A stretch of 64,000 nucleotides of DNA, taken from the NCBI GenBank assembly GCA_964510435.1, contig CAZEBU010000002.1:5458-69457 (forward strand), given 5' to 3'. Below are positions 4,062 through 22,366 of this stretch, piece by piece. Every line of letters starts with the position of its first letter. Within the stretch, counting starts at the first letter, position 1. Origin of the DNA: an uncultured Candidatus Saccharibacteria bacterium (GTDB lineage Bacteria; Patescibacteriota; WWE3; UBA101185; UBA10185). The position numbers and the translations under genes are program-made. A model generated the notes under the pieces. The model had not been told where the DNA came from, did not search any database, and was given only the letters and a program-made list of their open reading frames with translations.

Positions 4062-7000
4062 AGTTTTTTAAGCAAAGTAATTATATTGTAACTAATGAGA
4101 AGAGTATAAAGTAAGACAGAAAAATACAACCAAACTCTAGATAATTTAGCTGGAGAGAATTCAATGATAATTTCTTTTGCGCCCCCCAGTACATTCTCAT
4201 CCAAAATCCAGGAATTAGCATAACCGTTAGCCACAAAGTGTGGTGCAAAGATTTCTTGTCCTTCTTCATCGTATAGTTTCCACTCCGAATTGAACTGCTG
4301 GTTAAGGATGAGTACGTGATTTCCAAACAAGCTGCCAAGATTACCCACACGATATTTAGTAAGGGATTCTTCCTTAAAATCAGGCTGAACCTCTAAAGAT
4401 CTAATTTCCGGGATAATATTTTCATAATATATGGCCGGAAGCTGTTTTATACCAAAATTGAAGTCCTTCAGCTTGTAACCTTGGCTATCGGATATATTAA
4501 AGAGTAGAATGTAAAAACCCTTTGTGGCAACATCAGACTGCAATAGTCTCGTTACGGCAAACAATTTATCAGCTATCTCCTCGGGATTAGTCGGTACCAG
4601 AAAATAAGCTAGTCGCCTTCCCTTTTGGTAATTATCTCTTTTTGCACCAACCAGATACTCATCTTTAAGACTATCGTACTCTTCAATAATGGCTATGCCC
4701 ACACTCGGTTCCATTTTGTCGTATTTAAAGGAAAATTCATAGTTCAGAGAAGGAACTGTCTCTTCTACCTTAAAATAAGCTACATTATCCATTTCGTCTA
4801 CAAATGAGCTCTGCTCTGTAGTTTGCAAACTGAATCTGGTCAGCGCCACCAATGATTTCAATAACTGGTCATCGTTTACCTTTTCGGACGTAAATAATGT
4901 GGAACTAAGAAAGTCGCCATAATCAATAAGTGCTATATCTTCAGAATCAAAATCGTATATCTCAATTAACTTATCGCTGTCAAGTGATTCGGCACTCTTG
5001 ATAATTTCATAATCGGAAACATGAGACATGATAAGCTCACCCAAACCATCTTCATCAAAGTAGTAACAAATTCCCTGGCAAACTGTCGTATTACCTAAAA
5101 GCCACTCTTTAAAATCATCAAACAATAACCTCCCGCCCTCCTCCGTATAGCTAATGTCTTTATACATTTTGAAATTATGCTTTGCAAAAACGGTGTCGGC
5201 ATAGTTCACATGCGTAAATAGATCCTGAATAAGCAAAAAGTACTTTAAATCACGCTCCTCAAGAGGCACAGCAGAAAATACTTCCTGCATTTTTTGGTAA
5301 TTATCCACATATTCCTTGAAAGAAATCTCAGTGTCAGCTTCTTCGTGTAAAACAACTTCAGCTAATCTACGCGAATTATTATTGATAAGCAAACTATATG
5401 CCTCCCTATAACTACTGGCGTTCTCCACTCGTGATCTTTCTTTCTTCAGGTTAAGTTGGTACGAAAAAAGATTGCTGGGAGGCTGTACGTACCTGGGTAA
5501 TGAAAAACCTGCGGGCTTCATGTTGTTTAGATCAACGGAATAGTATCTTTTAGGAAAAACCAAGCGTGGGTATCCCTCCGAATTTGCTAAGTTTTCATCA
5601 AGCAAAACATCATACTCATCCATATAGCTTAGTAAAGTGTCATACGTGTAAACCCGCTTTTCGTTGGTGAATATAAAGTTATTGCTCAGTTTTATTTTTT
5701 GCGAAGGATCCACTACTTCGAATATGGCCACACGATCTGAAGTGTAACCTAGAGACTCCCTTGTAACCTCCCTAAACAAGTTTGACGCACTTACCTTATC
5801 AAAAAGATACCAGTAGTCAGGGCTCATCTTATCAAAATAAAAAACCAGATACTGCACATCCAGTTTTTTCATGATCGTCTCCACGGAATCGTCAAATTCC
5901 TCCATTAACTTGCGCACGAAGCCGGCATAGAAGGTATTGGAAACGTCGGTATCCTTTCCGGTAATTTTCACAAACCCCTGCGCAGGTGTTATATCGTAAA
6001 AGGACGATTGGAATCCTCTGTACTCACCATGAAACTCTTTCCTGCTAAAATCTTCTGAGCTTGAGGTAATGGGAACTTTTAAAACTTTGCTTTTAATGTC
6101 TTTTTTAAACAAGAAATTTTCTACATCTATATAGTCATGGGCATACTCAAAGGTACGCAGCTTAATATTTTCGATTTCTCCCTTGTCTTCGTATAATTTC
6201 CATAAAATGAAGGGGTTAGCGTTGAGAATTACTAACAATACGCTGAGATAGAAGATTTTACGGTTTTTCTTGTAAAAATAGTGTAAAAAGGCCGCCATAA
6301 AAATAGCACTAACCAAAGAAAGTAAAGCAATATTCCTCCCGGGATCTCTAATGATGTTGGTAAAGGGAAGCTTTGACAACCTGTACGAACCTAGCATTAA
6401 AAGTGTAAATGGGTACAAAGTTATAAAAAGCAAGCTAATTTTATGAATATTTCTTAATACTTTTACTTTGACGGCACTAAAAATGACAATTAAAACTCCG
6501 ACAAATGAGATGAGAGTCAAAAACTTCAAATACGAAGATTCGTAAGAATAATTAAAAATAGTTCCCCAACCACGCACAATATTTTGCAGTTGAAATCTAG
6601 TCCACATCCCCAAACTTACTGAACTAAGCACGTTATCCGAACCGAATACCTTGGGATCTTTAAAAGTAAATAGATTTATCAACCAGTAAAGATTAAGCGC
6701 TATTAAAAACACGTGCAGCAAAAAGGAATAAATAAGATATCTTCTTAGAAGCTTCTTCTCTCTAAGAAAACTAAGTCCCAATGCAAGTATAGTTATTGAG
6801 TACCAGACTATGGTCGTGGAGTTGGCTAAGGCTAGTGAATAAATAAGCAGACAGACTATCAGATACGCTACTTTATTTTCCCGCACAGACCTTAAAAATA
6901 GCAAGATAAACAAGGGCAGCACGGACATGGAAAAAAGCATGTAGTCCCAACCAATAACCGTAAAATTAAACATGAAAGGTGATGTTTGAAAAATAAAACC

Positions 7001-7390
7001 ACCAATAAACGAGGATGTCTTGTTTAAGCCAAAATATCTCAGAAGATGATACATACTTAAGCCAGCTGCAACGAAATAAGCCAGTAAAATTAGCTTTGAG
7101 ATAAAAGCTCCGCTTAAACCTAGCTTAAAGATCAGATTAATTAAAAAAATAAAAGGCAGAGACGACCGTACCGGCTCATAACCACCGATCAAGGAAAAAT
7201 TCCTCCAGGGGGAAAGGGCACTTTGTAACCACAAATCGCTTTGCAGCTTGGTATAAGGAAAAGACCAATCACCACCAACTATAATACCTTTGGATAAAAA
7301 TGCCGGTAATAAAAAAAATAGGCTGATAAATAGGAAGAGTAGAGCTGCAATTAACTTATCGTTTTTATAAATTTTTCTCTTTATATCCAT
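4043..7390 (-). CDS. Large (1115 aa) polytopic membrane protein. About 400 aa of N-terminal TM helices are followed by a ~650 aa extracytoplasmic domain and a C-terminal TM anchor. It is a putative GT-C-type glycosyltransferase with YfhO/AftD-like architecture.
   Basis: There are many hydrophobic segments in the first 400 aa (LIAALLFLFISLFFLLPAFL, LILLAYFVAAGLSMY, ...). A long hydrophilic domain follows, and the terminal helix is VWLYFSVLLYTLLISYNIITLL. The family assignment is inferred from architecture only. Confidence 0.6.
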   Translation of the reverse strand: MDIKRKIYKNDKLIAALLFLFISLFFLLPAFLSKGIIVGGDWSFPYTKLQSDLWLQSALSPWRNFSLIGGYEPVRSSLPFIFLINLIFKLGLSGAFISKLILLAYFVAAGLSMYHLLRYFGLNKTSSFIGGFIFQTSPFMFNFTVIGWDYMLFSMSVLPLFILLFLRSVRENKVAYLIVCLLIYSLALANSTTIVWYSITILALGLSFLREKKLLRRYLIYSFLLHVFLIALNLYWLINLFTFKDPKVFGSDNVLSSVSLGMWTRFQLQNIVRGWGTIFNYSYESSYLKFLTLISFVGVLIVIFSAVKVKVLRNIHKISLLFITLYPFTLLMLGSYRLSKLPFTNIIRDPGRNIALLSLVSAIFMAAFLHYFYKKNRKIFYLSVLLVILNANPFILWKLYEDKGEIENIKLRTFEYAHDYIDVENFLFKKDIKSKVLKVPITSSSEDFSRKEFHGEYRGFQSSFYDITPAQGFVKITGKDTDVSNTFYAGFVRKLMEEFDDSVETIMKKLDVQYLVFYFDKMSPDYWYLFDKVSASNLFREVTRESLGYTSDRVAIFEVVDPSQKIKLSNNFIFTNEKRVYTYDTLLSYMDEYDVLLDENLANSEGYPRLVFPKRYYSVDLNNMKPAGFSLPRYVQPPSNLFSYQLNLKKERSRVENASSYREAYSLLINNNSRRLAEVVLHEEADTEISFKEYVDNYQKMQEVFSAVPLEERDLKYFLLIQDLFTHVNYADTVFAKHNFKMYKDISYTEEGGRLLFDDFKEWLLGNTTVCQGICYYFDEDGLGELIMSHVSDYEIIKSAESLDSDKLIEIYDFDSEDIALIDYGDFLSSTLFTSEKVNDDQLLKSLVALTRFSLQTTEQSSFVDEMDNVAYFKVEETVPSLNYEFSFKYDKMEPSVGIAIIEEYDSLKDEYLVGAKRDNYQKGRRLAYFLVPTNPEEIADKLFAVTRLLQSDVATKGFYILLFNISDSQGYKLKDFNFGIKQLPAIYYENIIPEIRSLEVQPDFKEESLTKYRVGNLGSLFGNHVLILNQQFNSEWKLYDEEGQEIFAPHFVANGYANSWILDENVLGGAKEIIIEFSPAKLSRVWLYFSVLLYTLLISYNIITLLKKLCKIRN
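4081..4350 (-). other. Track ORF, probably spurious. It lies inside the 1115-aa gene in another frame.
   Basis: It overlaps the 3' part of 4043..7390 on the same strand in a different frame, and there is no recognisable domain. Confidence 0.1.
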
Positions 7391-8560: not shown

Positions 8561-9594
8561 GCATGCTCTCCAAGGTGCTCTTGTATGAGATTGGTGTTGG
8601 TGATGATCCAATCAGCCATTTTCTCCACACCTTCCTGTGGTATCGTTTTGGGTTCCCAGTCAAGTTCATCCTTAATTTTTGAGACATCTGATATGTAGAC
8701 AGGTTGATCCCCGGGTCGCCATTCGTCAAACTTATAGTCTATTTTCTTTTCCAGAAGACCCTCCAGCATCTCCAATAACTCCAGCAACGATAGGGTGTTG
8801 TTTGGCCCTCCTCCCACGTTGTAAATTTCTCCCGAAACTTTATCGATGTTTTTTGTTGCTAAATCCCAAGCTTCAAATAAATCATCGGCGTATAAAACAT
8901 CTCTCACCTGCATTCCATCACCAAAAATGGTTATCGGCTTACCTAGTTGAGCAGCAATCGTAAACCAGGCAACCCAACCCTGGTCTTCGATACCAAACTG
9001 TCTTTTACCATAAATGCAAGACTGTCTCATAACTACTGATCTAAGATCATACATTCTGGAAAAATCGCGTACATACTGATCCGCTGCACCTTTGGAACAT
9101 CCATACGGGGAATGAAAATCCAACAATCTATCTTCAGAAATACCTTTAGGTAAATCTTTAAAAACGTAGCGATGACCCTCTTTAACAATTTCAATCTCAG
9201 ACATTCCTCCATAAACCTTATTAGTTGAGGAATAAATAATCAGGGGTTTTCTCTCCGACCTGCGAATAGCCTCCAAAACATTAATCGTACCTAGAGCATT
9301 GGTGTCAAAGTCATCTTTGGGGTATTCATAAGAAGTTGTAACAGCCACCTGCCCGGCCAAGTGATAAACAGCATCTACCTGTTCTATTAAATTTCGCATT
9401 TTGTCAAAATCCACTCTTATATCAGCATGCACAAATTTCACTTTAGGGTATTTTTCCTGGAGATAAATAAGATTGGCCACGGCTCCTTTTCGGGAAAGAT
9501 TATCCAGCAAGATAACTTCCTCACTGCGATCCAATAGTTTTTCAGCAAAATTCGTACCTGTAAATCCGCAACCGCCTGTTAGCAAATATTTCAT
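8557..9594 (-). CDS. NAD-dependent sugar-nucleotide epimerase/dehydratase (extended SDR; CDP-paratose-2-epimerase / UDP-glucose-4-epimerase-like)
   Basis: There is an N-terminal Rossmann motif LLTGGCGFTGTNFAEKLL and a catalytic region YSSTNKVYG plus Y..K. Length is 345 aa. Confidence 0.85.
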   Translation of the reverse strand: MKYLLTGGCGFTGTNFAEKLLDRSEEVILLDNLSRKGAVANLIYLQEKYPKVKFVHADIRVDFDKMRNLIEQVDAVYHLAGQVAVTTSYEYPKDDFDTNALGTINVLEAIRRSERKPLIIYSSTNKVYGGMSEIEIVKEGHRYVFKDLPKGISEDRLLDFHSPYGCSKGAADQYVRDFSRMYDLRSVVMRQSCIYGKRQFGIEDQGWVAWFTIAAQLGKPITIFGDGMQVRDVLYADDLFEAWDLATKNIDKVSGEIYNVGGGPNNTLSLLELLEMLEGLLEKKIDYKFDEWRPGDQPVYISDVSKIKDELDWEPKTIPQEGVEKMADWIITNTNLIQEHLGEHA

Positions 9595-9635
9595 AACTGA
9601 TAAACATCCTACCCGATTTTTTGGAAATGTTAAAA

Positions 9636-11761
9636 TGCAGCTAGTGTTAATGAATAAAATCCAACCAAAAATAATTTATTACGCCTCACTTCTACTATTT
9701 ATTTTTTCACTGATTATAACTTTGATTTCCATGCTAAACGGTGTTCTGCCCCACCACTTGTTTTTTAACTCCGATGCTTTGTACTTAGCCACTATTCATA
9801 AAAGCATCTTTGTCGAAGGTTTCTCATTTACCAGTTATAAATTTCCCGACGCACCTTTCTTCTTTCCTGATTTTCTGATATTTAGCATCATATTTGCCGT
9901 CACAAAGAATTATCTGCTCACTAATATTCTCACTGCCTGGTCAATTCTTAGTATGGTTTTCATTGTTTTATATAAAATTGTGCAGTATCTGCTACCAAAA
10001 AGGCACTATCTAAAAAAATCCTTGCTCCTCTCGGGTTTCGCCTTGCTCATTGCTCTCATGGCGCAAAATCAGCTATTTCTCCACATTTTCCTGCTAATTT
10101 CCCCGGTATTTCACGAAGGGGAACTGCTCATAGTCATGCTCAGTTTATTGATCATCTTCGAGCTAGTACGCAAAGAGAGGGTCTTCCTTTATCCTATCCT
10201 ATTTGTGCTCATTGCTTTGGTAACTTTTTCGGATAAATCGGTGGTAAAGGATTTTACCGCTCCTTTTGCCATAGTTGTAGCTGTTACCTATTTCCTCGAT
10301 AAAGATATTTTCAAAAGATTTTGGAAAGCGCTTGTGGTTATAGTGCTGGCCACATTTGTCGGTAGTGTTTTGTATTCGATCATCTTGCCTTTCCCCAAAT
10401 CTTTTCCCGGCATCGTGACTTATAGTGGAAGAAATTTCGAGAACATGCTTAACAGCTTTAGAGACATCGCTAGTGAGAGGGTTCTTTTTGCTAACATAGC
10501 TAATCATAGGTACGAGTTTTCCAACTACTTAGCCTTATTTACTATTTTTATTGTTTTTTCTCTAGCTACTGTTGTTTTCCTCTTGTTTAAATACCTAAAA
10601 AAAATATCCCGGAAGGTGCAGCTTGATTTGTATGAAAAAAGAATGCTTCTATTTGGGCTCTTCATTTTAGGGCAAAGTATTCTTAATTTTGCTGCCACCA
10701 TATTTTTTGGTTATTACCACAGCTTAGTGCACACCCGCTATTTCACTCCTATGATGATCTTCCCTTATACCTGGTTTCTCATCTTTACGGGGGTACAGCT
10801 AGCTAAACATTTGCAAGAGAACTATTTAAAATATCTAAATATAGCGGTAATATTTCTGGTGGTGTTTGTCTCCTCACTTTTTTTCACTAAGATCAATGAG
10901 GGAGGTTTAGCCAACTATAAAAATTACAAACCTCCCAATTCCGTGTGTATTGATAAAATAGCCAAAGAGCATAATTTAAAATACGGTTTATCCGAACTAT
11001 GGAACACCGTGCACACGTTATTTTCAGATGAGGACGTGATTTTACATCAAATTTCCTCTCAAGGAAGTTTTCTCGAACCCTCCCACTGGCTAACTTCCTA
11101 CGAATGGTACGTGCAAAAGGCTCCGGAAATCCCTGAGCCACCGGAATATTCATTTATCGTTACGGAAAAGTTCGATACTAGTAAATTTGATAAGGTTCTT
11201 GGGGAGCCGTTATACGTTTACGATTGTCCGGAAACGCAGGTTTATGTTTACGATCCCCAAGTTATAGCACCAGTGGTAAATGGTTTATTTAGCTCTTGGT
11301 ATTTCTTCGATAGGCTTGACAGCGTGGGTGACGTAGTGGAAATCCCGGGTGGGCAGTTTGAGGAAATGATCTTTAATGTTGATGAAAATATTTCCTTGGT
11401 GGAACGCAAAACAACCCCCGAAAATCACCTACAAAGTGCTGATCAAGAAGGTCTGATCTCTTCCGGACCGTATGTGACCCTTAAAAAAGGTCTTTATAAG
11501 ATATCCCTGTGGTATCGTACGGACACGGAGGATGCCGGCTCGGTTGATATTATAACCTCACCACCGCTACAACGAACTAACTTTAATTTAGAAAATACCA
11601 ACGATGAAACTAGATCTTTTTCCGGTGAGGTAGAGATCGGCAAGGATATAAAGAAAATTACCATTAATCCTTACAATGTGGGTGCCATCAGACTAATGAT
11701 CAACTATAGCGGCGGCGGCACCCTAACTATTGAAAAATTGGTTATAGAAAGAATCGACTAG
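9636..11761 (+). CDS. Polytopic membrane protein (about 470 aa of TM region) with a ~230 aa C-terminal extracytoplasmic beta-rich domain. Function unknown.
   Basis: The start is taken at ATG 9636 (MQLVLMNKIQPK...). The track ORF at 9473 runs antisense into the epimerase. There are 12 or more hydrophobic helices. The C-terminal tail is GQFEEMIFNV...LYKISLWYRTDTEDAGSVDI...TLTIEKLVIERID. Confidence 0.6.
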
Positions 11762-11801
11762 GTCTAACCAGGTTAGACCAGGGTGATCTAGGTTAGACCT
11801 T
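11762..11801. terminator. Inverted-repeat hairpin (GGTCTAACC / GGTTAGACC, with a second GGTTAGACC copy) between convergent genes. Probable bidirectional terminator.
   Basis: The sequence is ctaGGTCTAACCaGGTTAGACCagggtgatctaGGTTAGACCt. It sits in the 31-nt gap between the + membrane gene (stop 11761) and the - rSAM gene (stop 11793). Confidence 0.4.
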
Positions 11802-13454
11802 AATAGAGGCTTTCTCTTCTTCCTCCACTTCTATGCTTTTCTTTATAGAATCCCCGATGGTCTTGTCTTCCTTTTTTGGTTTAAAGTGTGTGAACAGTTT
11901 TTTGGAAACATTTTTCCAAAAGCCTGATGATAACCAATTTATTGCCGTCTGTTCCTTATCAAAATCCAATAAATGACCTAGCAGTTTCCAAGCAGAATAG
12001 GCTAGATATTTAACATCGGAAAAACTTCTTACGGATACCGCTCTTCTGAAAATATACTTAGGAGTGAAAAATGATGAGTAGAGCTCTTGAGTTAGCTCGT
12101 ATAGTTTTTCCTGTGGAAAAGGAGTTCTCATTACGGGACGCCTCATATCAAAGGCTTCGTAATCCTTTGCATCCACTAACAACCAATCATTATCCAGACA
12201 CTCCTGGTATAGAGGTGTTCCCGGATAAGGAATAACGATAGTGGCCTGAATAGTGTCAACATATCCTTCGTTAAATAATCTTTTTGATAAAGCTATAGTG
12301 TTTTTAGCCATTTCTTCCGTTTCCCAAGGATAACCCAACATGATAGTTAAATGGGGTTCTAGTCCTGCTTTTTTGGCCATGCGCGCACCTTCTTCTATCT
12401 TGTGTACCTTCATGCCCTTATCCAACCTATCCAAAGTTTCCTGATTGGCTGATTCCATGCCATATAAAATGAATCTAAAATTGGCTTGCTTCATTAAATC
12501 ATAATATTCCTGGCTCAGTGCGTCTAGCCTCATATTGCAGCCCAAAACAACCTTTTTGTTATAACCTGAATCAATCATCAATTGGCAGAATTCCTTAAGA
12601 GGAGGGCCGATAAATAGCGTGCCTGCGTCATCGAAGATCTCTTTCACACCATAGTTATCCACCACATGCTTCACCTCAGCGAACAATCTTTGTGGAGAAA
12701 ACCTTCTATACGTACCCAAAGGATTTAACGTATGATCCCAGACACAAAAGGTACAGCGGTTCCACCAACAGTCCTTTCCTGAATACATATAGGTAGCCGG
12801 TGTATACTTATAGTTCCCGTTAGCATAGGCGTACAATTCCCATCTGGTTAGATCTCTATCGACAAAAGGCAGGTCATCAAGATCATGCGTCTGTTTCAGT
12901 GGTCCGGAGACCCAAAAATCATCTTCAAATTTGGCTAAATTACTTAGTTTTACATCCTTATCCTCGGTTCTACCCCAAATACCGCCTACCAACTCCACCT
13001 TCTTTGTCAAAGAATCCGCTAGATCAGTAAGCATAAAGTCATAATCACCTCCGGTAATGATGTAGTCCACACGGCAATTTTGCATACTCTCCTTGGGATC
13101 ATAAGTCGCGTGATCACCAACTAAAACTATCTTCATCTTAGGGAACTTACTTTTTAGCTGGTCAATAATTTCCCAGTGCTTCCTTATTACCGGAGCTTTT
13201 GTTTCCATCATCAGTAGATCAGGTTTTTCTTGCTCTAACTTACCCAACCACTCTTTATAGGACCACTCCTCTGCAATACCATCCAGCCAAACCACCTTGT
13301 AGCCTCTTTCCTGAGCCACCGAGGCAGCATACGCCGGCACCATAGGATAAATGAAGGTTTTGGCATTAAAAAACTGAAATTGCCTGTTCTGCGAAAGCAG
13401 TGGAACTCCTTTATTAGTTACAATGGGAGGGTATCCAATAGCTATTTTATACAT
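11793..13454 (-). CDS. Cobalamin (B12)-binding radical SAM enzyme (class B rSAM) with a non-canonical CX4CX2C cluster motif
   Basis: The N-terminal B12-binding-like domain contains KIVLVGDHATYDP and DYIITGGDYD. The rSAM core carries GKDCWWNRCTFCVWD, read from DNA as tgt tgg tgg aac cgc tgt acc ttt tgt. Later TIM-barrel elements are IFDDAGTLF and ILYGMESANQETL. Length is 553 aa. Confidence 0.8.
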   Translation of the reverse strand: MYKIAIGYPPIVTNKGVPLLSQNRQFQFFNAKTFIYPMVPAYAASVAQERGYKVVWLDGIAEEWSYKEWLGKLEQEKPDLLMMETKAPVIRKHWEIIDQLKSKFPKMKIVLVGDHATYDPKESMQNCRVDYIITGGDYDFMLTDLADSLTKKVELVGGIWGRTEDKDVKLSNLAKFEDDFWVSGPLKQTHDLDDLPFVDRDLTRWELYAYANGNYKYTPATYMYSGKDCWWNRCTFCVWDHTLNPLGTYRRFSPQRLFAEVKHVVDNYGVKEIFDDAGTLFIGPPLKEFCQLMIDSGYNKKVVLGCNMRLDALSQEYYDLMKQANFRFILYGMESANQETLDRLDKGMKVHKIEEGARMAKKAGLEPHLTIMLGYPWETEEMAKNTIALSKRLFNEGYVDTIQATIVIPYPGTPLYQECLDNDWLLVDAKDYEAFDMRRPVMRTPFPQEKLYELTQELYSSFFTPKYIFRRAVSVRSFSDVKYLAYSAWKLLGHLLDFDKEQTAINWLSSGFWKNVSKKLFTHFKPKKEDKTIGDSIKKSIEVEEEEKASIKV

Positions 13455-13495
13455 ATTACATATAGACTATTATAAATATGTTCCCCGGTCAATTT

Positions 13496-13756
13496 TTACC
13501 TTTCCGGCCACAACTGATTGCCGTTAAGATCCTCTACTACTATAGCTTTAGTGGGACAAGATTTTGCTGCCAGCACTATCTCAACGGCCTCATTCCAATT
13601 GGTTTCTTTAACAAAGGCTATTCCTTCTTCGTCCAGGTCAAAGGTCTCGGGCGCTTTAATAACACAAGTAGCCGCGCTGATACATTTTTTAGTGATAATT
13701 TTTATGCGAACCTTGGAATTTTCGAGCCCTGTATACTCGTCCTGACCTTTCAGCAT
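13496..13756 (-). CDS. Small mono-cluster [4Fe-4S]/[3Fe-4S] ferredoxin (Pyrococcus-Fd-like, Fer4_13-type)
   Basis: The fold is CISAATCVIKAPETFDLDEEGIAFV...AAKSCPTKAIVVED, i.e. C-x2-A-x2-C ... CP. The likely start is MLKGQ at 13756, 2 nt after the upstream GT2 stop. The track ORF extends to 13807. Confidence 0.65.
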   Translation of the reverse strand: MLKGQDEYTGLENSKVRIKIITKKCISAATCVIKAPETFDLDEEGIAFVKETNWNEAVEIVLAAKSCPTKAIVVEDLNGNQLWPER

Positions 13757-13757
13757 C

Positions 13758-14777
13758 TCATCCTTCTTGGTAATTTCCCGTTTCCTCATCCACTTCTCTG
13801 AGGGCAAACTTAGGCTTGATCACAAATCCAATCATAAAGTTTAAACCGTAATGCAAATGAGCCCTAAAAATACCAAAAAATATATATTTAAAGGCACCAA
13901 AATTTCTTTCTTGCATGCTGGCTCTCTGCGCTTCCGTAAAAACCATGGTGAAATATAAAAACGTAGCCGGTAAGTAAATTGACCATAATTTTGGAATTAT
14001 AAATGAACCGACGAGGCCAAACACTAACCCCAAAACAAACAGCGAGGGAATAAAGTAGGCTAATTTAAAAGAATTTTTTGGAAAGGCTCTGGCAAACCAT
14101 CCCCTATGCCTACCATATCGGGATAATTGCTGCAAAAAAGGCTTAAAAAGCTTCCTTCTGTGATGGTAAACAACAGGACCAGGATCATAAAGAAACTTTC
14201 TCTCATACTTTTTTATTAGATCCAGGCATAACTTAGTATCTTCACCCGGCCAATAGTCAGGATTGAACCCGCCTACTTCATCAAAAGCTTCCTTCTTGAC
14301 AAATAGATTAACGGAAGGGTAGTCATCAATTTCTCTTCGTTTAACCTTTTTATGTCTAAAAGCAGTAAAACCGCTGGTTAAGTATGATTCTAAAACGTGC
14401 CCTGTCACTTCTTCTAAAAAATCCACGTTGGGAGGAGTTAAAGCAGGACCACCTAAAGCGTACAGCTCGGGATTATCTCTAAAAATATTGGCGGCACTTC
14501 TCAGCCATCCAGAATCAGGGTAAGCATCGTCGTCTAGAAACACCAAAACATCACCAAGTGCCTCCCTAGCTCCCACGTTTCTTTTCTTACCCGGGCTAAC
14601 AGGCCCGGATTCCACCACCCTAAAGCGGTTTTCCCTAGAGCCAAAATTCACCTTGACGTATTTATCTAAAACTATGATAACCTCAAAATCGTAATAGCGT
14701 ACTTTTTTCAGGTGCGAAACAGTTTCCTTAATATACTCATTTATTGTTCTTACCGGTATGATGACAGAAAACTTCAT
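13758..14777 (-). CDS. GT2 glycosyltransferase with C-terminal transmembrane segments
   Basis: The GT-A N-terminus is MKFSVIIPVRT..FEVIIVLD and the DXD motif is VFLDDDAYPD. Hydrophobic helices appear after aa ~250. Confidence 0.8.
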   Translation of the reverse strand: MKFSVIIPVRTINEYIKETVSHLKKVRYYDFEVIIVLDKYVKVNFGSRENRFRVVESGPVSPGKKRNVGAREALGDVLVFLDDDAYPDSGWLRSAANIFRDNPELYALGGPALTPPNVDFLEEVTGHVLESYLTSGFTAFRHKKVKRREIDDYPSVNLFVKKEAFDEVGGFNPDYWPGEDTKLCLDLIKKYERKFLYDPGPVVYHHRRKLFKPFLQQLSRYGRHRGWFARAFPKNSFKLAYFIPSLFVLGLVFGLVGSFIIPKLWSIYLPATFLYFTMVFTEAQRASMQERNFGAFKYIFFGIFRAHLHYGLNFMIGFVIKPKFALREVDEETGNYQEG

Positions 14778-15593: not shown

Positions 15594-16859
15594 TTAGCGA
15601 GCAGCGTCTCTAGATAATTTATACAGATAAATACCTAGGGTGACAAGGATTAAGGTGGAAACCAGGATATTGATGCGCATTATTTCAAAGATGTCCGTAT
15701 GATATCGGCTTATTAATATGTATTGCAATATTACTGCCGGAATGACAATAAGGGTGATTCTCGTTTTATCTATGGCCAAGAAGTATCTGATCATAAAGTG
15801 GATCAGCACATAAATAGAAATAAAAATAGAAAACATAGGCAAGTACGCTGCTGAGGAAATTAACCTTTCTCCAAAAAAGAGACCGGTGATAAATTTAGGC
15901 AGAAAGTTGTAGACAACTAGAGACCCAAATATTATAGCCAGGGTCATCCCTAAAAATAATTTAAATTTATCGTGATAATTTTTACCTACAGCCTTCAACG
16001 CTGATATCTGTGGATACATGACGGTAGAAATAGGACTGGCACCAAAGAGGATGATTTTACCCATAAGAACAGTACCCGCGTAGTAACCAACCAGATCAGC
16101 ATCAAAATATTTTTTCACTAAAATAATGTCAATGTTGTTAAGTGACAGCATTCCAATGTACATAAAAAGGGTGGGAACGGCAAAACGGGCAATTTTCTTG
16201 TAATACAGCTTAATGTTGGGCTTATTGCCGTTAACAAAATTGTTTTTCAGCAAAATAACACCCAAAAGATAAATAAAAAGTAGAGATAAAGAAAATCCTA
16301 AGTAAACTCCACCCACTTCGAAACCCAGCATGACAAATACAAAGGTGATGATAAGTCTTAACAGGCCGTTGCTGGCAGAAAACAAAGCTATCGCTCTAAA
16401 CCTAAGTAGACCTTGCAAGTAAGATTGTGGTGCCACAATTAGCAAATTTGCTAATATATATAAACCTAAAAATAGAAAAAGTAGAGGTTCTTCAATTTGC
16501 ATATAGTCAGAGAGGGCATTCCTACTTAAATAAAGGGTTATGAGGATTAACAAACCTAAAGCGATAAGAAAAGTACTTAATTTCCAAAAAAGTGCGGTGA
16601 TCTTTTCCCACTGGCGCCCACTGGCCAGTTCGGAAACAATTTTTACTAAAGAGATACCCATGACCACAGAAACCACACCAACTATAGAAAACACAGCAAG
16701 TAAAGCGTTGAAGGTACCGAAATCAGCCGGGGATAAGTTTCGTCCTAAGAATAACTGCAGTAAATAGCTGAAAAAACTGTTGATCAAGGATCCCAAGGCA
16801 ACTACAGCCGTACCGGACAACAAATGCTTAACTTTGATCTCCGTGATGATCCTTCTCAT
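15594..16859 (-). CDS. Wzx-like oligosaccharide flippase (MOP/polysaccharide-biosynthesis family)
   Basis: The protein is 421 aa and fully hydrophobic with about 12 TMs. The N-terminus is LLSGTAVVALGSLINSFFSYLLQLFLGRNLSPADFGTF, as in Polysacc_synt proteins. Confidence 0.65.
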   Translation of the reverse strand: MRRIITEIKVKHLLSGTAVVALGSLINSFFSYLLQLFLGRNLSPADFGTFNALLAVFSIVGVVSVVMGISLVKIVSELASGRQWEKITALFWKLSTFLIALGLLILITLYLSRNALSDYMQIEEPLLFLFLGLYILANLLIVAPQSYLQGLLRFRAIALFSASNGLLRLIITFVFVMLGFEVGGVYLGFSLSLLFIYLLGVILLKNNFVNGNKPNIKLYYKKIARFAVPTLFMYIGMLSLNNIDIILVKKYFDADLVGYYAGTVLMGKIILFGASPISTVMYPQISALKAVGKNYHDKFKLFLGMTLAIIFGSLVVYNFLPKFITGLFFGERLISSAAYLPMFSIFISIYVLIHFMIRYFLAIDKTRITLIVIPAVILQYILISRYHTDIFEIMRINILVSTLILVTLGIYLYKLSRDAAR

Positions 16860-16862
16860 AAA

Positions 16863-18494
16863 CTACTTAACCCTTTGGTAGACGTTGTATAAGTCAACAT
16901 GACGCAATTTTATAGTGTCGAGGAATTCCAGTTCGAATCTGCCCTCGTTGGCTGAATCGTCTTCATAAACAGGGTAAACAAAATAATTAGTTCTTATGGC
17001 CATGGGTGTGAGATCTTTTATAGTAGCCCTTCCGCCAATTTCTTCAATGAAAGGCCAGATCTGTGTGTAGTACTTTTCCTGAAAGCCTATGGTAAGTTTG
17101 TTCTCGATCTCCGCAGTGTAAAGAACTTCATCTACGCTCTGTCCTTCCAAAAATGCCTCGTGATCATTTTCCATTTTGATTTTTTGGAAGTAACTGATAA
17201 TTTCTTGCTGGCCAAGCATCCATTTAGGTTCTATGACATAAATGCCTTTGCTAAGTCCCCCAAAAAGAGGGGAATAATAGGAAAAGTAATTGGGGTGCAA
17301 ATACAGGGCGGTGATAAGAAAGTACACTACTACCCCAACAGTGGCCAACCAACCTAAGTACTTAATTTTCCCGTTAAGGTAATCAAATAAATACCGGAAA
17401 TAAAAACTGGCTATAAGAATGAGGGCAAGTATTGCCGGTAATATATAACGGTCAAGTTTTTTAGATGGTATAGAAAGTTCTACTAAGTAAAATACTGAAA
17501 ATAATAAAGCGTAAATTATAAACAACTTCATTTCCCTGCTTTTAATAAATTTTCGAAAAGTAATTAAAAAGGCCAGTAAACCTATGAATAAAGGTAAAGA
17601 AATTCTGTAAAGAATAACCAGAGGGTAAAACAACCACCCCGGGTCTGCCACCCAATTCCCCATGAACAGCTGGAAATGACCCCTTTCTACTCCAATAGTA
17701 AAAATACCCCTATATAAAGTTCCTAGAGCTAGCCTGGCGTGAGTCCACATAGCCGGCCATATGAGAATAAAAAGTGCAGCTACCACACCCATCCATAAGA
17801 TAAAAGTTTTGCTTGCACCTACAGTAGCCGCTCTGAAATTTTTTTCCCTAACAAAGTTTTCGATGAAGATGATCAGTGCTGAAAAAGGTATTAAAAAGAC
17901 TGCAGACGTTTTAGTAAGAAAAGCAGTGGCAGCAAATAGAGCGGAGATTATCAGATGTTTTCTCCTACGAGTCCAAAAATAGTAATAAAGCCAAACAAAG
18001 CTGGCGATCATTAGGGTAGACATCAAACCCTCCAAATGAAACATCCTAGTTAAGGCTATATAAAAAGGTTCCAACATCATGAAAAAAATAGCCAGCAGGG
18101 CGTACTTTTTTCCAAAAATTTCCTTTAGGGGGTGGAAAATAAGCGCCAGCAGAGCACCGATCATTAAAATAACAAAAAACTTTTGCACAGAATGCAGTTG
18201 AAAAATAGCGGCAATATTATTATCCGGAGGTAAAACACCCAACAAAGATTCGTAGTAAAAATTAAAGGCTTTCACGCCGGCGGCACCCAGCCACATCAGG
18301 GTAACCCCGGGGTGGTATTTTTGTATGGTTTTCTCGAATTCCAAGTTAAATACCCCGGAACCAAAATCGTAAGTGCGTGCTTTCCACTTCCATGCGTCCG
18401 TGTTGAACATATCGTGGCCCAAGCTAGGCAGCCTAGAGAGAACAAAAAACAGAAATACTAAGATAAATAATTTGTTTTCCTTGATTATTCTCAT
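16863..18494 (-). CDS. GT-C-type membrane glycosyltransferase (PMT_2 / GT39-ArnT-like), paralog A
   Basis: The N-terminus has TMs and the first extracytoplasmic loop carries ..YHPGVTLMWL... Length is 543 aa with a C-terminal soluble part. It is a paralog of 19951..21519. Confidence 0.65.
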   Translation of the reverse strand: MRIIKENKLFILVFLFFVLSRLPSLGHDMFNTDAWKWKARTYDFGSGVFNLEFEKTIQKYHPGVTLMWLGAAGVKAFNFYYESLLGVLPPDNNIAAIFQLHSVQKFFVILMIGALLALIFHPLKEIFGKKYALLAIFFMMLEPFYIALTRMFHLEGLMSTLMIASFVWLYYYFWTRRRKHLIISALFAATAFLTKTSAVFLIPFSALIIFIENFVREKNFRAATVGASKTFILWMGVVAALFILIWPAMWTHARLALGTLYRGIFTIGVERGHFQLFMGNWVADPGWLFYPLVILYRISLPLFIGLLAFLITFRKFIKSREMKLFIIYALLFSVFYLVELSIPSKKLDRYILPAILALILIASFYFRYLFDYLNGKIKYLGWLATVGVVVYFLITALYLHPNYFSYYSPLFGGLSKGIYVIEPKWMLGQQEIISYFQKIKMENDHEAFLEGQSVDEVLYTAEIENKLTIGFQEKYYTQIWPFIEEIGGRATIKDLTPMAIRTNYFVYPVYEDDSANEGRFELEFLDTIKLRHVDLYNVYQRVK

Positions 18495-18497
18495 ATT

Positions 18498-19970
18498 TTA
18501 TTGATAGATATATATCTTAGGACCTTTTCTATACTCGTTATCAATACTCAAGAGCAATTTTCTATCAGCTTTGCCCGCATCTTCCGAGACAAGAACCGAT
18601 CTTGCCACCATATCATCCGCTTTTTTGATATGTACATTTTTTATCTCCACCCTCTCCAACACAGGTTTAAAATCAGCGTCTTCATAATACACAGTACTTA
18701 ACTCTCTCTTATTATCCTGAAGCCAATAATATAGCAGCTGGCGGGTGTCTTTTCGATAAAAAGTATAAGAACCTTGTAAAGTCAGCAAAACCGGTACTAA
18801 AAAAACCACCACCCAGATAAGTTCTTTATACTTGAACTTAAATTTAAACTTCTCCAAAGCTGAGATCAACAAACCAATGCCGCTGATAATAACAAATGGG
18901 TAGGCTACAAAATAATAGTGTGCCCGGTCATTCTCAAAACCTGTAATGTAGTATATGAAAAGCATACCCAGAACATTAAGATACAAAAGATCCCTTGTGT
19001 TAAAAAAACTTTTGTCTTTAATGATTTTCAGCAAGATATAAAACACAGAAACCAGAAACATAATTGCAAATGTATAACCAAAGTTCTCAAAAAGTTTTTC
19101 CGGAAAAATTAGAATAAATTCTCTAATATGCTCTCCTAAAGGCAAACTACCCACATTCTTAAATTGCCATAAAGCACCTTTCGGGCCATCCGTTCTTAAA
19201 AAAGTCTGGTAATCAAGAACGGCAAAGGGAGTTCCCGCCACAAAACCTATTAAAGAAGTAATTCCTGCAAAAACAAGGTTCTCTAAAGACTCCAAACTAA
19301 TTATTTTTTCGCTTCTTTCCCACCACAACCTAAAAAAATGCGCGAGTAAAATAGCAAAGATGATAATGGCTCCGTTATACTTTGTAGAAGCGGCCAAGCC
19401 CGCAAACAAGCCTGCTAATAAGTAATTAGAAACATTTTTCTTAAAGAGTATCCGTGTTGAAAAATAAAGCGACCAAGTAAGAAAAAAGGTCATAGGGACA
19501 TCCGCCAGCGAATAGTGAGAATGCCATACATGAAAGGGAACAACAGCAAAAGCCAGCGCCGAGAGTAAACCTGCTCTCCTGCCAAATAGATCCCTGCCAA
19601 TCAAAAATATAGGTAAAGCCGTTAAAGCACCTAAAACAGCTGAAAAAACTCTGGTTAACAAGTAGAAGATCAGTTTGTCATTCCAGATTATAGGTGCCAA
19701 GAAATAAGTATATTCCTTATAACCTAAGAGCTGGATCAAATCTCTTAATTTTGCAAAAACCATGTATAAGAAATAATTTAGGTATATATAGAGATGCGGC
19801 CAGTCAAAATGCCCGGGATTCTTAAAAAATCTAATACCTAGTGCTGAGCGAACGATGGTTGGCTCATCAGGGTGAAAAATAAATGGGAAAGAATGTGAAA
19901 TACCAATAAGCCTAATGGCTATGCCCACAGCTATAATTATTATAAGATATTTACTTGTCTTGTTTAACAT
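18498..19970 (-). CDS. GT-C-type membrane glycosyltransferase (GT39/ArnT/PMT_2-like)
   Basis: An HPDEP acidic motif sits in the first periplasmic loop after TM1 (IFHPDEPTIVRSALG). There are about 11 TMs and a short C-terminal soluble domain. Confidence 0.65.
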   Translation of the reverse strand: MLNKTSKYLIIIIAVGIAIRLIGISHSFPFIFHPDEPTIVRSALGIRFFKNPGHFDWPHLYIYLNYFLYMVFAKLRDLIQLLGYKEYTYFLAPIIWNDKLIFYLLTRVFSAVLGALTALPIFLIGRDLFGRRAGLLSALAFAVVPFHVWHSHYSLADVPMTFFLTWSLYFSTRILFKKNVSNYLLAGLFAGLAASTKYNGAIIIFAILLAHFFRLWWERSEKIISLESLENLVFAGITSLIGFVAGTPFAVLDYQTFLRTDGPKGALWQFKNVGSLPLGEHIREFILIFPEKLFENFGYTFAIMFLVSVFYILLKIIKDKSFFNTRDLLYLNVLGMLFIYYITGFENDRAHYYFVAYPFVIISGIGLLISALEKFKFKFKYKELIWVVVFLVPVLLTLQGSYTFYRKDTRQLLYYWLQDNKRELSTVYYEDADFKPVLERVEIKNVHIKKADDMVARSVLVSEDAGKADRKLLLSIDNEYRKGPKIYIYQ

Positions 19971-21519
19971 AAAAACGCCAATATTCCAATCCGTTTATAA
20001 AAATAGACGAATCCTGGATAAATTTTACCTCACTTTTAAGAACTTTTTCGGGAATCTCTTCATTTACAGCCAGAACAAGAATTTTATAATCTCCGGTACC
20101 GGAAATTCTAATATCTGAAACCAGGGAGTTGGGATAGATTGATCTTATGGGTTTTGTGTCTATGAATCCCACCTTTACTTGAGAACCATAATTCTCCTGT
20201 AGATGTTTCTTAACTTCAAAAATGCCTATACCAAAAGATTTCTGGGCTATTATCTTGTTGGCTTGCTGACTATTTCCGAATAAGGGACTGGTATAGGTAA
20301 ATTGGTAAGGGTGTAGCTTGATCACCGGCCAGATAACGTAGACCATAAATATTATTAAGAAAAGGAGTTTAAGGTTTTTATGAGAGTGATAAACTTTTAG
20401 CAGGCGGCAATATCCAAAAACAGCCATGATACCTAAGATGGGAAAGAGTACTATCATGTACCTATCGAGTTTCTTTGCGGGAAAAGTCATGACCAGAAAA
20501 TATCCCAGATAGAAAATGGCAAGATATATAAAAAGTCTTTTGGCTTTTTCTTTTAAATTCATCTTCGAAAAACTTCTTATAAAATTCAGGAGATAGAGCA
20601 ATACCCCACCTAGTAAGAAAGGCGATGTCTTCATTAATATCACTAGCGGATAAAAGAAAATACCCGGATCCTTGGTAAGCTCTCCAAAAAATATCTGACT
20701 ATGTCCTTTTCGAACACCTATTCTGCTACCTTCACTAAATATATCCTTTAGTACTTCCCACGGTTTATCCCACAAAGCAGGGAAAAATAAAAAAGTTGCC
20801 GCCAAAAAGGGTAGTGTGATTACTAAAACATACTTCAAAACTTTCCGAAAATCCCTCCGGGTATAATATAAGAAAGATCCTCCCACAATAATAGTGAATA
20901 GGTAGGCACCTACACCAATACTTCTGGTTAAAAAGGAGGCTGCTAAAAACAAGCCGCAAATTAAACCATAAGTTTTATCATCTGTCTTAATGTAAAGATA
21001 GGAAAGCAGTAACGAAGAAAAAATAAATAGCATAAAGATAAGGTCCATATGGTACAGTCTTGAATTACCAACAATAAAGGGCTCCATGCTCATAACAAAC
21101 ACCACCAGTAATGACTTTTTGAAGCCTATTACTTTTGTCAACCAGTAGATTATTAATATACTTAGCACTAGCTGTACCAAGACCAGGGAATATTTGGCAA
21201 TAAAGTGGAAAGCGTAAAAGCTAAATTGATCATAAAGGGTAATGTTGATGATCTGCTTAAAGATCTCTATAGGAATTCCCGTGAGCCACATTAAAGATAC
21301 GCCAGGATGATAGTGCTGATAAGTTTTGCTAAATATCTGGTGCTTAAGACCAACAACAAACTGTTCTGATCTGTAGTGCCAATTTACAGCATCCGGATTA
21401 ATTGTATCGAAACCCAGCTGAGGAAGTCTTGTGATAAGAAATAGGATCACAAAAACAAGTAGCCAAATGATGGTCTTTTTATTAAGCGTCTTTACCCAAT
21501 GCATAGATAACTCCTCCAA
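19951..21519 (-). CDS. GT-C-type membrane glycosyltransferase (PMT_2-like), paralog B
   Basis: QHYHPGVSLMWL aligns with KYHPGVTLMWL of 16863..18494, and the topology is the same. Length is 522 aa. Confidence 0.65.
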   Translation of the reverse strand: MEELSMHWVKTLNKKTIIWLLVFVILFLITRLPQLGFDTINPDAVNWHYRSEQFVVGLKHQIFSKTYQHYHPGVSLMWLTGIPIEIFKQIINITLYDQFSFYAFHFIAKYSLVLVQLVLSILIIYWLTKVIGFKKSLLVVFVMSMEPFIVGNSRLYHMDLIFMLFIFSSLLLSYLYIKTDDKTYGLICGLFLAASFLTRSIGVGAYLFTIIVGGSFLYYTRRDFRKVLKYVLVITLPFLAATFLFFPALWDKPWEVLKDIFSEGSRIGVRKGHSQIFFGELTKDPGIFFYPLVILMKTSPFLLGGVLLYLLNFIRSFSKMNLKEKAKRLFIYLAIFYLGYFLVMTFPAKKLDRYMIVLFPILGIMAVFGYCRLLKVYHSHKNLKLLFLIIFMVYVIWPVIKLHPYQFTYTSPLFGNSQQANKIIAQKSFGIGIFEVKKHLQENYGSQVKVGFIDTKPIRSIYPNSLVSDIRISGTGDYKILVLAVNEEIPEKVLKSEVKFIQDSSIFINGLEYWRFYVKQDK

Positions 21520-22366
21520 TTAAGCTAACTCCTAGTCTAAAAAGATGGTAGACCAAGGAGGCGCTTAAACTTAAACTTCCTAGAACTCCTACTACGGCAA
21601 ATAGTTTCATGTACAAGGCATCCTGCACACCAATACCGTTTAGTGAGGGGATAAAAAATCCTGCCAAAGTAATTACCGGAAATATAAAAAGCGCATACAC
21701 AATAGGGAGCTTTATTCCTAAAGCCAGAAAAACAAAATACTGCGTAGCTATGGCAAGAAACTGTACTATAAATGAGGTAATAAAAGCCCATAAAAGTATT
21801 TTGTTCTTGCCTCGATAGGCATTTAACGAATGGTAGAGTTTTCTTACCTTTTCGGATCTGGAACTTAGAAAACTTAATAAATAAAAACCTATGAGTATTC
21901 CTACTACAAAAACTATTAAAATTAGCGCTCCCCAAATCCCCAGCATTTTTACCAAACTAAAAACAGAAATTAAACCTAGAGCAACAACTCCGGTAAATCT
22001 CTCCATAAAGGTAGCCGAAAAAGCATCCACAGCATCACCAAGCTTTTTTCCCAGTTTGTAAACTTTATAGACGTCTCCACCAATGCTGGTGGGCATGAAG
22101 TTGTTAAAAAATGCACCGGTAAAATATAGGTAGGTCAGGTATTTCACAGATACCCTCTCGGAATTCTTATGGATCAATAATGTTTTCCATCTATAGGAGC
22201 TGACAAGATAGTTTGTGACCAAAAGAAGTATGATAAACGGCACATATCCATAATCCAAAAGCCTAAAATTATTAAGAAAGCTTTCTTTATCCACACCATA
22301 AAAAATAATGGCTATAAGACTCACGCTTATAGTGAGTTTAATAATAAAGTTCCTTTTTTCTTTCAT
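21482..22366 (-). CDS. UPF0104 / LPG-synthase-TM family membrane protein (flippase-like domain)
   Basis: The protein is 294 aa with about 8 TMs. The N-terminal pattern KLTISVSLIAIIFYGVDKESFLNNFRLL..YVPFIILLLV is typical of the MprF-like flippase domain that often accompanies GT2 enzymes. Confidence 0.55.
   Translation of the reverse strand: MKEKRNFIIKLTISVSLIAIIFYGVDKESFLNNFRLLDYGYVPFIILLLVTNYLVSSYRWKTLLIHKNSERVSVKYLTYLYFTGAFFNNFMPTSIGGDVYKVYKLGKKLGDAVDAFSATFMERFTGVVALGLISVFSLVKMLGIWGALILIVFVVGILIGFYLLSFLSSRSEKVRKLYHSLNAYRGKNKILLWAFITSFIVQFLAIATQYFVFLALGIKLPIVYALFIFPVITLAGFFIPSLNGIGVQDALYMKLFAVVGVLGSLSLSASLVYHLFRLGVSLIGGVIYALGKDA

Follow-up and report, generated by a model that had tools for sequence, protein, structure and literature searches.

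The DNA under study is a window of 64,000 nucleotides (nt) from contig CAZEBU010000002.1 (assembly GCA_964510435.1) of an uncultured Candidatus Saccharibacteria bacterium, which GTDB places in WWE3 of the Patescibacteria. On its minus strand, among genes for glycan synthesis, lies a gene for a radical S-adenosylmethionine (SAM) enzyme of 553 amino acids (aa), and its features and neighbors are collected in Table 1. This gene represents a genuine, well-conserved and uncharacterized subfamily of a known enzyme class, the radical SAM enzymes of class B architecture. The interpretation favored here, with moderate confidence, is that the enzyme uses radical chemistry to modify a sugar that is carried by a lipid-linked (polyprenyl-phosphate) intermediate of a surface glycan.

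Table 1. Features at the radical SAM locus, in window positions (GT2, family 2 glycosyltransferase; SDR, short-chain dehydrogenase/reductase; ORF, open reading frame)
Feature	Position	Strand	Basis or remark
Radical SAM enzyme, 553 aa	11793..13454	-	N-terminal Rossmann (B12-binding-type) domain, partial TIM-barrel radical SAM domain, C-terminal helical region
B12-binding-type Rossmann domain, residues 34-135	13050..13355	-	PF02310, 37.3 bits against a cutoff of 32.1
Radical_SAM domain, residues 232-388	12291..12761	-	PF04055, 59 bits against a cutoff of 29.5
Cluster-binding motif C229-W-W-N-R-C234-T-F-C237 (CX4CX2C)	12744..12770	-	Translation CWWNRCTFC
Spacer from ferredoxin stop to radical SAM ATG, 41 nt	13455..13495		Sequence read; no clear Shine-Dalgarno sequence
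Mono-cluster ferredoxin, 86 aa	13496..13756	-	Fer4_13 39 bits, Fer4_15 28 bits; C25-I-S-A28-A-T-C31 ... C67-P68
Membrane-anchored GT2, 339 aa, Glyco_trans_2_3	13758..14777	-	Pfam and NCBIfam; steadiest neighbor of the radical SAM gene
GT2 of polyprenyl-phosphate sugar synthase type, 267 aa	14778..15581	-	Nearest solved: P. furiosus dolichyl-phosphate-mannose synthase 5mlz, ArnC, GtrB
Polysacc_synt (Wzx-type) flippase	15594..16859	-	Pfam; syntenic in related loci
Three PMT_2-family GT-C membrane glycosyltransferases	16863..21519 (16863-18494, 18498-19970, 19951-21519)	-	Pfam
NAD-dependent sugar epimerase/dehydratase, SDR, 345 aa	8557..9594	-	Pfam and NCBIfam
Multi-pass membrane protein, 762 aa, convergent to the radical SAM gene	9473..11761	+	ORF

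The radical SAM protein and its cysteine motif

A sequence-only reading of this DNA had described a B12-binding radical SAM enzyme with a CX4CX2C motif, and this description was borne out. Both PF02310 and PF04055 score above their Pfam cutoffs, the first spacing of the motif is indeed four residues, and the 553-aa translation of 11793-13454(-) contains SGKDCWWNRCTFCVWDH. A partial triosephosphate isomerase (TIM)-barrel fold, a PF04055 match above the gathering threshold and a documented three-cysteine variant place the protein in the radical SAM superfamily, and its AlphaFold model, built on an alignment of 94 sequences, reached a predicted local distance difference test score of 93 and a predicted template modeling score of 0.92. 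The DUF4070 domain that had been expected at the C-terminus gave no Pfam match in the 553-aa protein, and neither did any acetyltransferase domain. Among 5.8 billion proteins searched for homologues, 4,987 relatives were found. The top 120 share 68-100% identity with the protein, and almost all of them belong to candidate division WWE3 or to other members of the Patescibacteria; the family ranges over WWE3/Katanobacteria, some few further Patescibacteria and, at the least, one archaeon of the DPANN group (Woesearchaeota). The literature on WWE3 or candidate phyla radiation (CPR) bacteria was searched for radical SAM enzymes or cobalamin, and nothing relevant was found.

The variant motif is strictly maintained in close relatives. 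Each of these 120 homologues (at least 68% identity) has C-[WY]-[WY]-x-[RK]-C-x-F-C, and no alternative CX3CX2C triad occurs in the protein or in any of them. The protein has seven cysteines (residues 127, 229, 234, 237, 290, 306, and 419), and in the 94-sequence alignment, which extends down to 25% identity, only C229, C234, and C237 are conserved at 90% or above, with K227 two residues before the first and W239 two residues after the third. By alignment, these residues are the sole conserved cysteine triad, at the position of the [4Fe-4S]/SAM site. Three further cysteines, read on the minus strand, are near-invariant in the WWE3 clade: C290 (12569-12587) in 24 of 25 aligned close sequences, and C306 (12537-12539) and C419 (12198-12200) in all 25. 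Among 69 remote relatives, C290 is found in 58 and C306 in 46.

Representatives at 50% identity were searched exhaustively with HMMER, and the spacing between the first two cysteines in the clade was 3, 4, 7, 9, 10, 17 or 18 residues. The CX4 form is exemplified by CWWGRCTFC and the CX7 form by CWWRKDGGCTFC, and the CX3 form (CPYxCxFC) belongs to remoter HpnJ/BchE-like sequences. As aligned, the cysteine loop, whose length varies across the clade, is here longer by one inserted residue. The earlier claim that CX4CX2C is unusual for class B enzymes did not hold up against this range of 3 to 18, or against the literature. A 2022 review gives the motif for OxsB, a cobalamin-dependent radical SAM enzyme of solved structure (PMC9204698), and a 2015 paper gives Cx4Cx2C for GenD1, which C-methylates sugars in a cobalamin-dependent manner (PMC4340712). 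When the PDB was searched by profile, CDYSRCTFC of OxsB aligned column for column with CWWNRCTFC. With the same motif in OxsB and GenD1, the spacing is not really unusual for class B; many cysteine-spacing variants are listed at RadicalSAM.org (PMC9477430), and given such clear precedents the motif alone is no discovery.

The triad has been lost in a few full-length relatives (P0140, P0144, P0146, P0147, and P0155; 31-37% identity), which carry S-S-G, S-S-S, Y-S-S and the like in its place. These paralogue-like proteins may be non-catalytic or may use another site. All of them except P0155 retain cysteines aligned with C290, C306, and C419. In other homologues the motif is interrupted by inteins, most with a LAGLIDADG endonuclease. 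The insertion lies at the third cysteine (CTF/C...N/C[VS]W, slashes marking the junctions) in P0122-P0126 and P0153, with the exception of P0124, where it precedes the first cysteine (HN/CWWRR). Loci L055/L056 (8001-9998) also carry inteins, and one of the intein-bearing homologues is a Woesearchaeota protein. Because these inteins sit exactly at the first or third cysteine, a cluster ligand would double as the +1 splice nucleophile, and an unspliced, intein-bearing protein could not, on this prediction, bind the cluster. Inteins tend to home into catalytic sites, and their insertion at the motif cysteines is thus an independent mark of a functional triad.

None of the curated families claims the protein. 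Its NCBIfam scores are 160 bits for HpnJ, 107 for BchE, 69 for PhpK, 49 for HpnR, and 44 for AprD4. Membership of HpnJ (TIGR03471) was rejected at 159.8 bits against a cutoff of 577.6, with no HpnI/HpnK context, and membership of BchE (TIGR02026) at 106.8 against 481. The AprD4 family (NF033070) was set aside as well, its 44 bits against 500 coming from the radical SAM domain only and its CX3CX3C motif differing from the CX4CX2C found here. For ten remoter relatives the top profile was HpnJ or BchE, again with the cutoffs not reached.

Gene neighborhood and the ferredoxin

The most constant feature of the locus is the pairing of the radical SAM gene with the 339-aa GT2, hereafter GT2(339), which lies upstream on the same strand in 44 species-representative GTDB loci that were compared. 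Where the flank reaches, the usual order is two GT-C genes, the flippase gene, the gene for the 267-aa GT2, hereafter GT2(267), that for GT2(339), in some loci the ferredoxin gene, and then the radical SAM gene; two of the three GT-C genes of the window are syntenic in most WWE3 loci. The NCBIfam matches of GT2(267) include PgfS, PpgS, ArnC, and AglJ. In four genomes the two GT2 genes are fused and encode a single protein of 606-633 aa (L001 1317-3218, L006 5503-7335, L011 6907-8727, and L037 7867-9705), which suggests that the two enzymes act consecutively.

The pairing recurs outside WWE3. In the Woesearchaeota locus, a GT2 (Glyco_trans_2_3) and the radical SAM gene stand beside STT3/AglB, a GT4-family phosphotransferase, a GT2 of the dolichyl-phosphate (Dol-P)-sugar-synthase type, and LPG_synthase_TM, and in L057 and L062 the GT2 and radical SAM genes overlap by 4 nt. 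A deltaproteobacterial locus has a Bac_transf phosphotransferase gene after the radical SAM gene, and the radical SAM paralogues of L059-L061 lie in glycan-type clusters. Two of these loci, both metagenomic (L060 5514-13123 and L061 1252-11556), hold four B12-type radical SAM paralogues each, among genes for YfhO/PMT GT-C proteins, GT2, GT4, methyltransferase, and epimerase, which suggests heavily radical-modified glycans; L060 also carries a SPASM radical SAM gene. This recurrence outside WWE3 indicates that the conserved functional unit is the GT2 together with the radical SAM enzyme, in polyprenyl-phosphate-dependent glycosylation systems. An SDR gene may follow directly: in L014 one with 66% identity to the window SDR starts 75 nt after the radical SAM gene, and in L002, L034, and L041 too an SDR gene comes directly after it.

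The mono-cluster ferredoxin reported 41 nt upstream of the radical SAM gene is present as described, with matches to Fer4_13 and Fer4_15. The mechanical ORF (13496-13807) begins with a TTG at 13807, and its first 50 nt lie within the upstream GT2 gene. The likely start is instead the ATG at 13756, which lies 1 nt past the GT2 stop, is preceded by AAGGA and would give 86 aa, as in the homologues. A perfect TATAAT occurs in the spacer at 13469-13474 (minus strand), 15 nt upstream of the radical SAM ATG; as an internal promoter, it could produce a transcript that is nearly leaderless. Neither the promoter scan nor the terminator scan around the genes exceeded chance, and this TATAAT was not flagged by the consensus scan.

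The label "Pyrococcus-type" had to be abandoned. This ferredoxin has only three cysteines, in the arrangement CxxAxxC...CP, and Ala occupies the position of the second cysteine in all 29 WWE3 copies. CXXA/GXXC(X)nCP is a [3Fe-4S] signature, whereas the P. furiosus ferredoxin has CxxDxxC, with Asp rather than Ala at the second ligand position; for characterized [3Fe-4S] ferredoxins the potentials lie at about -203 to -85 mV (PMC6237146). A cluster of the [3Fe-4S] type is predicted accordingly from the motif. The description of the protein as a dedicated electron donor also went too far. A ferredoxin is present in 28 of the 44 loci, always 4-83 nt after GT2(339); it abuts the radical SAM gene in 15 of them, as in the window, and in the other 13 is separated from it by inserted genes over 0.9-6.6 kb. 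A further 13 loci lack it and have the GT2 abutting the radical SAM gene, L041 has a four-cysteine ferredoxin in the same slot, and L019 and L020 have another gene in the gap and no ferredoxin. In the archaeal locus L055, a three-cysteine ferredoxin (CIGAAAC...CP) lies about 6 kb from the radical SAM gene. Presence in 28 of 44 loci and in an archaeon makes the ferredoxin a recurrent but dispensable companion.

Two other genes, both absent from the window, were noted in this interval. In about 12 WWE3 loci (L011 8996-9928, L006 7623-8597, L001 3483-4493, and about nine more), a gene X of about 310-340 aa stands between the ferredoxin and radical SAM genes; it has no Pfam match and conserves CPTH and DTCYCxRC motifs, and its product could be another client of the ferredoxin. 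A gene Y of about 240-250 aa, likewise with no Pfam match, occupies the gap before the radical SAM gene in L020 (9157-9912), L029 (8704-9462), and L002 (9193-9918), and two of these three loci (L002 and L020) have no ferredoxin.

The sequence-only reading had placed the enzyme at the tail of the glycan operon, which is right in part. The gene does lie in a glycan cluster and ends a co-directional block because the convergent 762-aa gene follows, but beyond it the minus strand carries further glycan genes as far as about position 177. The 762-aa protein has no Pfam or NCBIfam match and no tblastn match in any related locus, and its gene looks like a genome-specific insertion between the radical SAM and SDR genes. 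The ORFs scanned from about 0.2 to 35 kb are mostly for glycan synthesis and are followed by adk, secY, and long ORFs, whose order and sizes suggest the ribosomal-protein, elongation-factor, and rpoBC operons. The glycan region includes an ORF of 1115 aa at 4043-7390(-) with no Pfam family. A membrane protein of the LPG_synthase_TM family is encoded in the window at 21482-22366(-), in the WWE3-type loci L002 and L003, and in the Woesearchaeota locus L055 (6138-7091), and may be a further conserved component. Rfam at gathering thresholds gave zero matches in the 64 kb, even in the presumed ribosomal-protein operon. The GC skew is negative throughout the window, and the minus strand carries almost all of the genes.

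Proposed function and its alternatives

In the proposed pathway, GT2(267) would load a sugar onto polyprenyl phosphate and GT2(339) would extend or use the product, an order with which weak NCBIfam matches to AglJ and AglG of the Haloferax Dol-P pathway agree. The radical SAM enzyme, in the cytoplasm, would then act on the sugar of the polyprenyl-phosphate-linked intermediate made by both GT2s: a 5'-deoxyadenosyl radical would abstract a hydrogen atom, and an unactivated sugar carbon would be converted, either by C-methylation via methylcobalamin or by a non-methylating ring rearrangement or dehydration. The Wzx-type flippase would flip the product, the PMT_2/GT-C enzymes would pass it to a surface acceptor, and the three-cysteine ferredoxin would be an optional, lineage-specific redox partner. 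As a matter of judgment rather than computation, about half of the weight falls on a non-methylating rearrangement or dehydration as in HpnJ, OxsB or AprD4, about a third on cobalamin-dependent C-methylation as in GenD1, MoeK5 or TokK, and the rest on other outcomes.

The class B label stands as far as the B12-type domain is concerned, but cobalamin dependence is only putative, and the best structural match is the cobalamin-independent AprD4. In profile alignment the N-terminal domain aligns with the cobalamin domains of OxsB, TsrM, TokK, CysS, and MgmA and not with the N-terminal domain of AprD4. The cobalamin hot spots were judged by structure-derived motifs together with column conservation. 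Several are kept, namely G113 on beta-4 at the Gly-Gly motif position, K/R227 at the position of TokK R204, and W239 at that of TokK W215, a residue that in TokK stacks between the cluster and the corrin (PMC9204698). At the Gly-Glu motif position on alpha-5, just past the Pfam match, stands G136-D-Y-D139, a conservative variant, and there is no DxHxxG in this domain, which is normal for class B. Cobalamin use is plausible, and it is somewhat probable that the enzyme binds cobalamin.

Several points weigh against the proposed function or its cofactor. The "downstream" cobalamin motif G-x-S/T-x-X reads M82-x-E84-x-K86 here, with Glu for Ser/Thr; no B12 transport or salvage genes were found among the scanned ORFs of the window, and Rfam detected no cobalamin riboswitch in the 64 kb; the closest structure is that of a cobalamin-free enzyme; and the protein reaches no curated family threshold. 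The substrate and product of this uncharacterized family are deduced from gene neighborhood only, and the substrate could be a nucleotide sugar instead of a lipid-linked intermediate. The ferredoxin is missing from about a third of the loci, and its predicted cluster type is normally too positive to reduce a radical SAM cluster.

One alternative is that the enzyme resembles AprD4 and acts on its sugar by radical chemistry without cobalamin. The Rossmann domain would then be structural only, and a sugar diol would be dehydrated, deoxygenated, epimerized or oxidized, possibly with the SDR as reductase. A reduced-genome organism with such a B12-free enzyme would have no need to scavenge B12, and the absence of B12 genes and of a riboswitch from the window would follow. 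AprD4 is the top match both by structure and in the profile search of the PDB (176 bits), and it has a non-canonical cysteine motif of its own, CPYPCRFYC. The match nevertheless spans only the barrel and the C-terminal region, and the N-terminal domain sides with true cobalamin domains, with PF02310 passing its gathering score and the cobalamin-contacting positions of TokK, OxsB, and TsrM conserved. In favor of the alternative, both AprD4 and ArsL fall in the "B12" similarity network although neither of them binds cobalamin (2026 review, PMC12931638); against it, the AprD4 NCBIfam model gives the protein 44 bits, with a cutoff of 500. The SDR genes directly after the radical SAM gene in L002, L014, L034, and L041 could supply a reductase, but SDRs are common in any glycan cluster. 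On balance this alternative is rather unlikely. A ring contraction as in HpnJ or OxsB is considered more unlikely still. Here, the membrane GT2 would attach a hexose to a lipid acceptor, the radical SAM enzyme would contract it to a carbocyclic or otherwise rearranged head group, and cobalamin and/or the ferredoxin would take up electrons instead of carrying a methyl group. The pairing of a GT2 with a subsequent radical SAM step mirrors HpnI-(HpnK)-HpnJ (PMC13459092), but GT2(339) matches neither HpnI nor HpnB, and the window ORFs scanned include no HpnK/YdjC-type deacetylase. Of the curated profiles, that of HpnJ scores best with the protein and with most relatives tested, at values far below the cutoff (160 against 578, relatives peaking at 348). 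At stringent thresholds HpnJ falls into one cluster with the methylases Fom3 and MoeK5, and thus closeness to HpnJ does not indicate chemistry; the mechanism of HpnJ is itself hypothetical. Support also comes from OxsB, a ring-contracting enzyme with the same CX4CX2C, from the hydrophilic Lys86 at the lower-axial position, as in TsrM and OxsB, which are not radical methylases, and from the predicted high potential of the ferredoxin, which suits an acceptor role.

A third alternative concerns the ferredoxin alone, which may not be the partner of the radical SAM enzyme and may serve another enzyme of the cluster, or be a general electron carrier that is merely syntenic. Its position follows the GT2, at 4-83 nt from GT2(339) in every case, while its distance from the radical SAM gene varies from 43 nt to 6.6 kb, and it is absent from the 13 loci where the GT2 and radical SAM genes abut. 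Reductive SAM cleavage usually needs a potential well below [3Fe-4S] values, which is unfavorable to a role as donor, and the cysteine-rich gene X that follows in about 12 loci (CPTH...DTCYCxRC) is a possible client. Against this, a three-cysteine CxxAxxC...CP ferredoxin accompanies the radical SAM gene, at about 6 kb, even in the archaeal L055, a different, four-cysteine ferredoxin fills the same slot in L041, and the radical SAM enzyme is the only redox enzyme that family scans recognized among the adjacent window genes. A ferredoxin with no part in the radical SAM reaction is possible and somewhat less doubtful than either alternative for the chemistry, but it is not the expectation here.

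If the favored reading, a radical modification of a lipid-linked sugar, is correct, radical chemistry makes a conserved part of the surface glycan of WWE3/Katanobacteria and possibly of some DPANN archaea, and surface glycans are the likely interface between an episymbiont and its host. A broader proposal, advanced only tentatively, is that CPR and DPANN organisms share a three-part module, in which a membrane GT2 is joined by a radical SAM enzyme with a B12 domain and an expanded cysteine loop and by a ferredoxin of the [3Fe-4S] type. The module would equip surface glycans linked to polyprenyl phosphate with a radical-derived sugar not described so far (C-methylated, deoxygenated or carbocyclic). 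A cobalamin requirement would be a concrete cofactor dependency in organisms thought to make almost nothing, and under the module reading minimal-genome episymbionts would depend on corrinoid scavenged from the community or the host. For enzymology, the family offers a natural series of cysteine-loop lengths (CX3 to CX18) in one fold together with triad-less paralogues, and the three-cysteine ferredoxin challenges the usual picture of how radical SAM clusters are reduced. The points of interest are how the family is distributed across CPR and DPANN organisms, its coupling to a membrane GT2, the ferredoxin of [3Fe-4S] type, and the question of cobalamin.

Comparison with known systems

The ferredoxin has its closest counterparts in the [3Fe-4S] mono-cluster ferredoxins (CXXA/GXXC(X)nCP), such as the P450 partners known from actinomycetes, which share its motif and size (86 aa). 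They differ in setting, the present protein being encoded with a glycan cluster and a radical SAM enzyme, and not with a P450, in CPR and DPANN organisms.

For the radical SAM enzyme, a link to Elp3 had been suggested by the spacing of the motif. CX4CX2C has been reported for archaeal Elp3, but Elp3 chains match a generic barrel stretch only (48 bits, profile positions 282-402), and thus there is no Elp3 connection; the present protein also differs from Elp3 in having an N-terminal B12-type domain and no acetyltransferase match in Pfam. By structure, the model is closest to AprD4, and RimO and MiaB are also among the best matches. AprD4 (PDB 6FD2) is a radical SAM 1,2-diol dehydratase that acts on an aminoglycoside sugar. 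It differs from the present family in being cobalamin-free (PMC12931638), in an N-terminal domain that does not align, and in an identity of only 16%.

The cobalamin-dependent radical methylases of the TokK/CysS type resemble the protein in a basic residue two positions before the first cysteine and a Trp two positions after the third (R204 and W215 in TokK, K227 and W239 here), and in the Gly motif on beta-4 and an acidic motif on alpha-5. HpnJ, which forms the cyclitol ether of hopanoids, is the best curated family over both domains at 160 bits; its substrate is a lipid-linked amino sugar, on which it works subsequent to a membrane GT2. The HpnJ-like relatives, however, have a canonical CX3CX2C (e.g., P0172, CTGRCIFC), and the window enzyme stands in no hopanoid, HpnI or HpnK context. 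HpnJ and MoeK5 co-cluster in a similarity network, and the substrate of MoeK5, like that of HpnJ, is a lipid-anchored sugar. GenD1, compared by description only, is a class B enzyme with Cx4Cx2C that methylates aminoglycoside sugars of the gentamicin/sisomicin type with cobalamin, but it comes from an actinomycete secondary-metabolite pathway. OxsB, of oxetanocin biosynthesis (PDB 5UL2-5UL4), combines a cobalamin-type Rossmann domain with a radical SAM barrel, the same CX4CX2C, and a sugar-ring substrate. Every one of the nearest characterized relatives acts on a sugar ring.

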